A DNA stretch of 64,000 nucleotides from Bacillota bacterium (GTDB lineage: Bacteria > Bacillota > Desulfotomaculia > Desulfotomaculales > JBFMEU01): the NCBI GenBank assembly GCA_040753155.1, contig JBFMEU010000002.1, positions 5,633 through 69,632 of the forward strand, in the 5' to 3' direction. The notes under the pieces are model-generated. The model searched no databases, had not been told where the DNA came from, and worked only from the letters and a program-made list of their open reading frames with translations. Below, in pieces: positions 16,395 through 16,832 of this stretch; the stretch's first letter is position 1; the number at the start of each line of letters is the position of its first letter. A program made the translations under genes and the position numbers.

Positions 16395-16597
16395 TGGCCC
16401 GTCAAGTCAGGCGGCTTACCCGTTCCAGCTACAACAGAATGATTGCCGGAGTTTGCGGCGGGCTGGGCGAGTATTTTGGTTTGGACCCCACGGTGGTGCG
16501 GGTGGGCTATATAGTGTTTTCCGTACTTTCAGCGGCCTTTCCGGGCATTTTTGTTTACCTGCTGGCCTGGCTGATTGTACCCAGGGATGATTTCTAG
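16395..16597 (+). CDS. PspC-domain membrane protein
   Basis: RLTRSSYNRMIAGVCGGLGEYFGLDPTVVRVGYIVF. ATG 16395 follows gtgggag; the ORF track starts at 16319. Confidence 0.8.
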
Positions 16598-16832
16598 TAA
16601 CTACTCAGGAGTCAGAAGTCAGAAGTCAGGAGTCAGGAGTCAGGAGTCAGGAGTCAGGAGTCAGGAGTCAGAATGAGAAAACCAGCGAAAACATTTGAAG
16701 ATTTACTGGTATGGCAGAAGGCGCACCTGTTCGTACTTGCGGTTCAACGTTTATCCATGGCGTTTCCGAAGTATGAGATATACGGTCCGTTCTGAATCCT
16801 GACTCCTGAATTCTGAATACCTGAATAGCAAC
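16596..16832 (+). repeat. H element copy H5 (complete mini-element with 40-codon ORF remnant)
   Basis: gtaactactc-(aggagtc/agaagtc)x9-agAATGagaaaaccagcgaaaacatttgaagat... encodes MRKPAKTFEDLLVWQKAHLFVLAVQRLSMAFPKYEIYGPF*. The 3' arm is ttctgaatcctgactcctgaattctgaatacctgaatagcaac. Confidence 0.9.

Follow-up and report, generated by a model that had tools for sequence, protein, structure and literature searches.

The window analysed here, 64,000 nucleotides (64 kb) of contig JBFMEU010000002.1 from a Bacillota bacterium (positions 5,633 to 69,632 of the forward strand), carries GGAGTCA/GAAGTCA heptamer arrays at 12 loci, where they enclose fragments of a four-helix-bundle gene (PF05635/TIGR02436). 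These copies, numbered H1 to H11 in addition to one solo end, are true insertions and represent deletion derivatives of the kind known as MITEs (miniature transposable elements with inverted repeats). We consider it likely that they are non-autonomous DNA transposons that arose by internal deletion of a four-helix-bundle cassette, are mobilised in trans and yield transcripts whose stem is probably cut by RNase III. According to a greedy map of open reading frames (ORFs) with Pfam assignments, every copy sits between ordinary chromosomal genes of a spore-forming member of the Bacillota, among them MreB, SpoIIID, F1Fo ATP synthase, a release factor, HisG, PspC and SHMT. The Pfam scans, which covered 40 ORFs of the window, revealed neither a transposase nor a reverse transcriptase, and a comparison with Rfam showed no family covering the arms and no ribosomal RNA (rRNA) in the window.

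Empty sites, termini and target duplications

The insertions are documented by orthologous sites that lack them. The DUF4127 protein adjoining H9 (54248 to 54448, minus strand) is 100% identical to a database entry from a Bacillota metagenome-assembled genome and has relatives at 79% identity in locus L040 and at 70% in locus L039. Both loci share the gene order of the window (S8-SLH peptidase, MreB, SpoIIID, DUF4127), and neither contains heptamer arrays. The junctions of H9 and H11 (56668 to 56880, plus strand) were both read against L040. For H9, the window reads ..GACAAGTATC[GTAAC...ATAAC]CAAATATCTT.. compared with ..GACAAATATCTTCGG.. at the empty site, and for H11 it reads ..CATCCTATTG[GTTAC...AGTTAC]TCCTATTGTATAGACGA compared with ..TATCCTAATGTATAGACGA.

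Terminal inverted repeats (TIRs) of the form GT(A/T)ACTA(C/T)TCAGG are found at both ends of the elements and run on into the arms, the ends being GTAACTAYTCAGG...CCTGARTAGTWAC. In a survey of ten complete copies from the window and from loci L022 and L006, seven were flanked by 8-bp direct repeats. These duplications were perfect as called in three copies (TGCTATAC, AAATATAC and, at H11, CAATAGGA), perfect after a one-base shift of the boundary in H2 (AAATATTG), and matched with one mismatch in three further copies, while the chance of a perfect 8-bp match is approximately 1.5e-5 per copy. With 8-bp duplications and inverted-repeat termini, the elements therefore qualify as MITEs, and their size fits as well: the copies measure 113 to 361 bp, and their ORFs of 7 to 49 codons derive from a gene that does not encode a transposase. 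As the earlier note had stated, the window contains no intact master copy. Locus L022 holds five copies in 20 kb, three of which are exactly 200 bp long and lie within 4 kb. Since these three copies occur so close together and since H2 and H11 share one deletion at unrelated loci, it can be concluded that gutted copies still moved after the deletion. The proposal of dispersed, MITE-like relatives of rRNA intervening sequences (IVSs) outside rRNA genes is thus borne out by empty and filled sites, by the target duplications, by deletion derivatives at unrelated loci, by copies on other contigs and in other genomes and by a significant match of the interior to the family models (see below). As far as sequence analysis reaches, none of the three outcomes that the note had named as speaking against it was observed.

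Arrays and copies in the window

The GGAGTCAGGAGTCA dimer, with at most one mismatch, occurred 38 times in the window against an expectation of 0.02, and none of 100 shuffles contained as many. At each of the listed loci, Tandem Repeats Finder (TRF) detected arrays with a period of 7 and 2.6 to 11.6 copies of the unit; this range, together with the approximately 55 heptamers found in Phosphitispora fastidiosa, supports the suggestion that array length varies by slippage. All of the dozen loci named in the earlier note were present, with coordinates exact or off by one to two bases, and extraction of the twelve loci reproduced the consensus layout given there, GTAACTAYTC followed by (AGGAGTC)n, AGA-ATG-AGA-AAA-CC... 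and ...CATTCTGA(A/C)TCCTGACTCCTGAATTCTGAATACCTGAATAGTAAC. Two statements had to be narrowed. The Shine-Dalgarno content ascribed to the heptamer in general holds for the TCAGGAG-type subfamily but is specific to it, and the copy at 442 to 890, although it does contain a four-helix-bundle remnant, belongs to a different heptamer subfamily with (GAGTGTG)16/(CACACTC)6 arms that stand beside a TCAGGAG-type arm.

The interior derives from a four-helix-bundle gene. Fragment 612 to 842 of the copy just named matched PF05635 with E=1.6e-18 and 67.3 bits (cut-off 33.8) and TIGR02436 with E=1.5e-20 and 73.4 bits (cut-off 24), so the assignment to the four-helix-bundle family lies above the curated cut-offs of both models, while the 40-codon N-terminal ORFs of other copies reached E values of approximately 2e-4 and 21 to 22 bits, below the cut-offs. 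A 121-aa protein was pieced together from the window fragments and two fragments from databases (P0006 and P0020), with a few residues typical of the family supplied by hand. It is 92% identical to intact 121-aa database proteins, and a search with it returned at least 7986 relatives at E<1e-10.

When the copies were mapped on an intact copy, whose nucleotides serve as reference, a series of deletions emerged in which both ends are always kept. H5 and H9 retain nucleotides 1-114 and 345-389 and share one deletion; H2 and H11 retain about 1-12 and 220-389 and share another; H6 retains 1-23 and 359-384, H10 about 1-23 and 332-383, and H8 1-83 and 304-389 with a foreign 135-bp repeat inside. As the earlier note had it, H5 and H9 keep 40 codons, H2 and H11 the start plus the 3' end, H6 and H10 about eight codons and H1 helices 2-4.

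H5 (16597 to 16832, plus strand), the copy flagged for study, consists of the left TIR with 9.6 heptamers (16597-16672), the truncated 40-codon ORF (16673-16795) and the right arm (16788-16832). It reads AGTAACTACTC, then the 9.6 heptamers (AGGAGTC/AGAAGTC), AGA-ATG, the 40-codon ORF MRKPAKTFEDLLVWQKAHLFVLAVQRLSMAFPKYEIYGPF with its stop, and TTCTGAATCCTGACTCCTGAATTCTGAATACCTGAATAGCAAC. Its first base is the G of the TAG stop codon of the PspC gene, and a terminator-like hairpin follows downstream. Complete copies include the following: H2 (1592 to 1796, minus strand; 205 bp), which keeps the start (four codons) and the 3' part of the gene and has AAATATTG on both flanks; H9 (201 bp), which carries a 40-codon ORF and the 8-bp duplication CAAGTATC/CAAATATC; and H11 (213 bp), with the deletion of H2. 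H6 (21097 to 21241, plus strand) is a mini-copy of 145 bp with 11.6 heptamers and 8 codons, and H10 (56313 to 56425, plus strand) is another of 113 bp.

At H1, a TCAGGAG-type arm (GTAAC-AGGTATTCAGAATTCATAATTCAGGAGTCAGGAGTCAGGAG; 438 to 493, plus strand) directly adjoins the stop codon of a PUA-domain gene, and the GAGTGTG-type copy is attached to this arm. This copy comprises a left arm of (GAGTGTG) x16.6 (494 to 609, plus strand; 100% matches in TRF, score 232), the remnant at 612 to 842 on the plus strand, which lacks a start codon and covers PF05635 profile positions 23-92 of 106, and a complementary right arm of (CACACTC) x6.6 (843 to 888, plus strand) with a 95% inverted match. H3 (2245 to 2300, plus strand) is a right-end fragment with reference nucleotides 326-379 only. 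H4 (11286 to 11345, plus strand) keeps reference nucleotides 87-114 and an arm, its left side being replaced by an unrelated 135-bp repeat. H7 (24758 to 24866, minus strand) keeps the left arm and reference nucleotides 1-79 and is truncated by another repeat family. H8 (35683 to 36043, plus strand) is without the outer left TIR and bears the foreign 135-bp repeat at 35815-35961, and the solo left terminus at 35473 to 35490 on the minus strand is the reverse complement of GCAACTACTCAGGAGTCA.

Dispersal and intact cassettes

The family is not confined to the window. The N-terminus recurs in 51 database proteins, all of which are truncated, with lengths of 22-69 aa and several different breakpoints, and many truncated proteins lie on at least eight other contigs in the accession block of the window's proteins, apparently from the same metagenome-assembled genome (MAG). 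A scan with an 18-mer over 596 Gb, with one genome per species, gave 21 matches against approximately 17 expected by chance; only the ten matches with an adjoining heptamer array (next to the ATG) were used, and the rest were regarded as chance. These ten array-bearing loci belong to Desulfotruncus, Desulfocucumis, Dethiobacter, Peptococcaceae, Desulfitobacteriaceae, Syntrophales, Desulfovibrio-labelled MAGs and an anammox MAG. In the loci from other genomes, similarity to the window is confined to the elements and the flanks do not match. Copies on other contigs and in other genomes, set in unrelated flanks, speak against a mere local duplication. A search of viral contigs revealed no protein closely related to the intact one.

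Intact 121-codon genes with the same arms occur in Bacillota, in Cyanobacteria (on conjugative plasmids), in Kiritimatiellia and in other phyla. In Phosphitispora fastidiosa (L025 5918-6306), the intact gene lies between flgK and a flagellin gene; in Trichormus variabilis ATCC 29413 and Nostoc punctiforme, it is located inside the transfer operon of conjugative plasmids; a Kiritimatiellia MAG carries the intact gene with the same flanking arms; and on Bacillota contigs a mini-copy stands in tandem with a full copy. The arms are part of the coding sequence at both ends, as the right array encodes the stop codon and the last six codons (..ILNSDS*) and the arms also encode N-terminal extensions. 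The start codon pairs with the CAT of ..GGCATTCTGA. Between phyla, synonymous difference amounts to 0.8-0.9 and is saturated, non-synonymous difference to 0.13-0.21, and dN/dS to 0.13-0.15 where measurable. With so little non-synonymous change, the protein is therefore functional and under purifying selection, and the arm sequence, being conserved, is likewise under constraint. Its closest solved structure is 2gsc (XCC0516; E=1.2e-16), a pentamer of five chains, and we speculate that a pentameric protein may read the repeats.

Some of the intact loci deserve a description of their own. The left array of Phosphitispora fastidiosa is situated between the stop codon of flgK and the four-helix-bundle start codon within the flagellar operon and has approximately 55 heptamers, which are of four AGGAGNN variants, each with the Shine-Dalgarno-like AGGAG. 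The right arm has only about four units, which means that arm lengths can differ greatly. In locus L036 (9890-10397) and the orthologous L037, a mini-copy made up of four codons and the gene tail is placed directly beside the intact copy with a common arm junction, which suggests either that one element inserted at another's end or that the arrays recombined unequally. In the plasmid loci L044, L052, L053, L054 and L055, intact four-helix-bundle genes were found inside or beside defence operons, lying between the members of the pairs hsdS/hsdR, helicase/N6 methylase, DUF1156/HEPN gene and DISARM drmD/MmeI-type enzyme, or upstream of cas1. The protein itself matched no defence-system model in PADLOC.

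Period-7 brackets around the wider family

Inverted arrays are not restricted to the 121-codon clade. Plasmids were searched by tblastn with the H1 fragment, and twelve diverse loci were then inspected. Inverted short-repeat arrays flank the gene in nearly all of the twelve, being weak and degenerate in L046, and the loci represent Cyanobacteria, Bacteroidota, Spirochaetota, Chloroflexota and Bacillota. Most of the arrays are built of heptamers, with a sequence that changes from one locus to the next (CTGGTCA, AATTCGT, CAATTCG, GATTAGT, CTCTCCG, TTTAGAT, CCCCAAT/CGTAAAT, ATGAAGG and AATTAGG). Among 17 plasmid and genome loci, seven was the best period upstream in 16, downstream in 16 and on both flanks in 15. 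A metagenome scan based on a 6-sequence protein alignment, in which loci with complete flanks were counted, gave 42, 43 and 37 of 51 loci, respectively. The corresponding counts for a control of 46 ordinary window genes were 7, 10 and 3, and of the three control genes that had period 7 on either side, two adjoin elements.

The two flanks of a locus also belong together. Upstream and reverse-complemented downstream flanks shared a mean of 8.5 heptamers within loci versus 1.9 between loci in the plasmid and genome sample, and 9.9 versus 1.7 in the metagenome sample. From lineage to lineage the heptamer sequence changes, but it does so jointly on both flanks, and the period stays 7. Many of the intact genes lie within operons, for example between hsdS/hsdR, drmD/MmeI, RND adaptor/permease, flgK/flagellin or tra genes, and they are co-oriented with both neighbours in approximately 14 of 17 loci.

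Predicted folding of the transcripts

In predicted folds, the arms form a terminal complementary stem that encloses the insert, as in rRNA IVSs. The earlier note had expected a long perfect stem. The stems are long, with 35 to 49 long-range pairs and z-scores of -2.6 to -5.8, but they are interrupted by bulges and hence not perfect. For H5, the minimum free energy (MFE) is -81.3 kcal/mol with z = -4.4, H10 gave z = -5.75, and a third copy gave -2.6. With G-U pairs and energies considered, five copies favour the sense fold and two the antisense fold, and the copy at 56668-56880 is a near-tie.

Comparison with known systems

IVSs with an S23p ORF occur in 23S rRNA genes, as in helix 45 of Coxiella burnetii, and also in Leptospira, Brucella and Haemophilus. 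The Coxiella helix-45 IVS has a 28-bp terminal stem that is cut in vitro by RNase III (Warrier et al. 2016, PMC4990558). In the same IVS, a Shine-Dalgarno-like AGAAGA is followed by two to three GACAGAT units, depending on the strain, and one GACAGAA just before the S23p ATG, and one Coxiella strain has a 176-bp deletion in the IVS ORF (PMC4990558). The window elements have in common with this type of IVS the PF05635 protein, variable tandem heptamers directly before the ATG and ORF deletions in some copies, and the distribution of rRNA IVSs suggests horizontal spread (PMC4990558). However, the copies in the window all lie between protein-coding genes, have defined termini and 8-bp duplications and occur many times per genome. 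Their heptamer is TCAGGAG/TCAGAAT instead of GACAGAT, and the RNase III excision demonstrated for the Coxiella IVS would apply to them by analogy. Altogether, the comparison supports describing the elements as IVS-like, and it does so more strongly than the earlier note could.

The Correia MITEs of Neisseria, whose stems are cleaved by RNase III (PMC10969869), resemble the window elements in being small and without transposase, in having terminal inverted repeats, duplications, filled and empty sites and many size-variable intergenic copies, and in their hairpin transcripts. The window elements differ in that their parent is a four-helix-bundle cassette and not a recognisable insertion sequence (IS), their arms are variable 7-nt arrays and their duplication is 8 bp long. 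Chunjie, a MITE known from Geobacter uraniireducens, was rejected as a member of the same family because of its 21-bp inverted repeats, 9-bp duplications and A+T-rich sequence (PMC3184786). Members of IS66 have the termini GTAAGCG or GTAACCG and 8-bp direct repeats (PMC11946415, PMC12888890), and a GTAA terminus combined with 8-bp direct repeats is also found in the window elements. However, the likeness ends after the first four or five bases, and IS66 ends are not heptamer arrays. No IS66 tnpA/B/C genes were found among the 40 scanned ORFs of the window or in the fetched loci, so that IS66 as a source of the transposase is only a lead. An IS4-type transposase in locus L023 was considered as the mobilising enzyme and rejected, as its flanks are unlike the element termini.

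Avd of diversity-generating retroelements belongs to the PF05635 superfamily and is a pentameric four-helix bundle that acts together with nucleic acid. Neither a reverse transcriptase nor a pair of template and variable repeats was present beside any copy examined (window ORFs and the neighbours of at least 20 intact genes). The heptamers CTGGTCA and CCCCAAT around cyanobacterial four-helix-bundle genes resemble the units of cyanobacterial short tandemly repeated repetitive (STRR) sequences. Intergenic tandem heptanucleotide arrays, often just upstream of start codons, are also formed by the TAACTGA repeats of Beggiatoaceae (PMC4679880). However, STRR and TAACTGA repeats are described as free-standing direct repeats, and no published tie to the four-helix-bundle family was found.

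In Geobacter metallireducens, eight inverted pairs of approximately five MTYCTGA heptamers were taken to be sites of a global regulator, of class 3 (Aklujkar et al. 2009, PMC2700814). Their heptamers (ATTCTGA, CTCCTGA and CTTCTGA) are identical to those of the window elements and are inverted and 70-115 bp apart, like those of H6 and H10. They were published as protein-binding sites, however, without a tie to a four-helix-bundle gene or to mobility. In the literature searched, by topic or by repeat sequence, we could not find a unified description of heptamer-bracketed four-helix-bundle cassettes. The earlier remark that no description of the architecture was known therefore appears to hold for the general rule of bracketed cassettes, but fragments of the picture have been published with the Coxiella heptamers (PMC4990558) and the Geobacter pairs (PMC2700814).

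Mechanism and alternative explanations

The explanation we favour starts from a parent cassette of approximately 430-500 bp, which would consist of a single gene of 121 codons, encoding a four-helix-bundle protein that forms pentamers (S23p / 23S_rRNA_IVP), and of complementary 7-nt arrays that bracket this gene tightly. In the Bacillota lineage, a unit with GT(A/T)ACTA(C/T)TCAGG ends would insert at A+T-rich sites through an 8-bp staggered cut, with the transposase presumably supplied in trans. Only the ends would be needed for movement, and copies stripped of most of the gene would therefore keep spreading in intergenic DNA. In a read-through transcript, the arms would pair into a stem of approximately 30-45 bp with the gene remnant in the loop, and this pairing may mask the ATG together with the ribosome-binding motifs. 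To judge by the Coxiella rRNA IVS and the Correia MITEs, RNase III would probably cut the stem and the element would be clipped from the transcript without ligation, whereby insertions between genes or inside rRNA helices would become tolerable.

Several observations weigh against this explanation. In the window and the fetched loci, no autonomous partner with matching termini was found, the whole source genome not having been scanned, and three of the ten complete copies have no recognisable duplication. The sense and antisense folds are about equally stable, and nothing separates action at the RNA level from action at the DNA level. In addition, the arm sequence is conserved across phyla despite saturated synonymous sites, which points to sequence-specific recognition and is not explained by a plain RNase III stem. 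The junctions of intact copies are not uniform either. In a filled/empty pair, T. variabilis plasmid C versus pCC7120beta, the intact copy is flanked by a 5-bp GTAAT duplication; a second Nostocales insertion produced no duplication and lost 2 bp (GT); and a third replaced 328 bp of a methyltransferase gene. These three junctions rule out an 8-bp duplication as a general rule for intact cassettes, and it is only in the MITE lineage of the Bacillota that the 8-bp mechanism is established. It may thus have been captured secondarily by one lineage, the cassette itself moving in another way.

These last points lead to the strongest alternative, a self-contained mobile or selfish cassette whose own pentamer would recognise the 7-nt repeats in the form of DNA or RNA and help the cassette to spread, to persist or to control its copy number, the 8-bp MITE behaviour being specific to one lineage. 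That the arms are conserved among members of the 121-aa clade, that the protein is under purifying selection and that the junctions are non-uniform, unlike the work of one transposase, would all be expected if this were the case. Furthermore, the gene goes together with its heptamer brackets in at least six phyla, and the heptamer varies with the protein lineage and matches between flanks while the period stays 7. Ralph and McClelland (1993) proposed the IVS ORF as a component of mobility, and other older proposals saw IVSs as remnants of transposition or mobile elements (both as cited in PMC4990558). However, no catalytic fold for the breakage or joining of DNA is known from a helical bundle of 121 aa, and gutted copies have spread without the protein in cis. 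Binding to the repeats is putative, and co-inheritance alone could make the heptamer type track the protein type. We regard a self-contained cassette as clearly less probable than the favoured explanation, but as the most probable of the alternatives.

Rather improbable is the explanation that the copies are hairpins that are no longer mobile and have been co-opted as RNA elements for their neighbours, be it as processing sites, 3'-end stabilisers or translational occluders. The predicted stems are stable, H5 is located in a 3' untranslated region (UTR) before the terminator, start codons follow 20 nt downstream of H9 and 34 nt downstream of H11, and the common orientation of intact genes with their neighbours would fit as well. 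However, the sites are not conserved in relatives, the copies occur in both orientations, many of them are fragments cut by other repeats, and the perfect duplications indicate recent insertion.

The inverted arrays could also be binding sites for a global regulator or nucleoid protein of the host (IHF/HU type) that serve transcriptional control, as the Geobacter metallireducens pairs were interpreted (PMC2700814 Additional file 9), and the intergenic position of the copies, several of them close to start codons, would suit such a role. We consider this very unlikely as a general explanation, since the arrays occur together with remnants of the gene, inverted termini and duplicated targets, are missing at the orthologous positions of relatives and bracket the intact gene in many phyla, while the neighbours are unrelated, both orientations occur and the repeat number ranges from 2 to 55. 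Single copies may have been co-opted secondarily as regulator sites. That the copies are local duplications or chance simple-sequence repeats unrelated to mobility is practically excluded, as only the repetitive nature of the arrays speaks for it, against the excess of the dimer over its expectation, the occurrence in unrelated genomes with non-matching flanks, and the duplications and empty sites.

Implications

The origin of rRNA IVSs and the role of the S23p ORF have been debated since about 1990, and in the literature searched no direct evidence was found for the proposals of a transposon remnant or mobile element. For an architecture of the IVS type, the window now offers junctions of insertions, duplicated targets, empty sites and a series of deletions, and with them direct sequence evidence that such inserts derive from a mobile element; with Phosphitispora fastidiosa, Nostoc punctiforme and Trichormus variabilis experimentally usable genomes exist. 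Genes of one very large family, of which this clade alone has the number of relatives given above, are nearly always bracketed by inverted arrays of period 7, which is a strong constraint and may account for the over-representation of heptanucleotide repeats in bacterial genomes. More tentatively, and with the odds rather against it, the four-helix-bundle gene and its inverted arrays might constitute one ancient selfish cassette across bacteria, its pentamer reading its own 7-nt repeats, which would be the source of ORF-bearing rRNA IVSs, of MITE families such as the one described here and of much of the heptanucleotide-repeat excess (cyanobacterial STRR, the Geobacter pairs and possibly TAACTGA-type arrays). 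On the practical side, annotation presents fragments of the gene as numerous small ORFs called "four helix bundle protein" or "hypothetical", and the heptamer repeats probably break metagenome assemblies, because many gene-bearing contigs are only approximately 1 kb long.

Other repeats and features of the window

The repeat of approximately 135 bp that interrupts H8 belongs to a family with 91-100% identity that ends in ..GTCTCGTTCAAC and occurs at 2715-2853, 11170-11286, 12862-12998, 19184-19326, 33733-33854 and 35815-35961. The copy inside the element at 35683-36043 has a counterpart at the same position of an element on an unrelated metagenome contig (L024 3130-3378); either this repeat targets that element sequence, or the composite has itself spread. 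A second dispersed family, with 93-98% identity between parts, lies at 21329-21474, 24528-24757, 31117-31235, 36191-36283 and 40564-40729 and is the one that truncates the element copy at 24758-24866. A stretch of 92 bp at 11322-11413 recurs inverted at 56243-56334 with 94.6% identity, beside two different element copies. It consists of an element arm and approximately 70 bp of adjoining sequence (..CTTCTGCGCGGAG..GGTGATA..), which suggests either that the element is embedded in a further repeat or that it prefers this target.

Apart from these, a palindromic repeat of approximately 65 bp that matches itself on both strands was found just past a gene end in each of its four positions (10846-10912, 23757-23821, 28129-28194 and 61029-61095) and may be a shared terminator or REP-like element. 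At 7125-7219 on the minus strand, Rfam assigned a tRNA-Sec with 51.1 bits, above the gathering score, and ARAGORN predicted a 95-nt tRNA with the anticodon GCA (Cys). This Sec-shaped tRNA with a Cys anticodon, an unusual combination, adjoins an ORF with a sulphur-transport domain (6019-7176). Finally, a 12-nt tandem repeat (CCTTCTTTAATG) with 7.6 copies and 89% matches is located at 61319-61409, inside or beside the ORF at 61204-62097.

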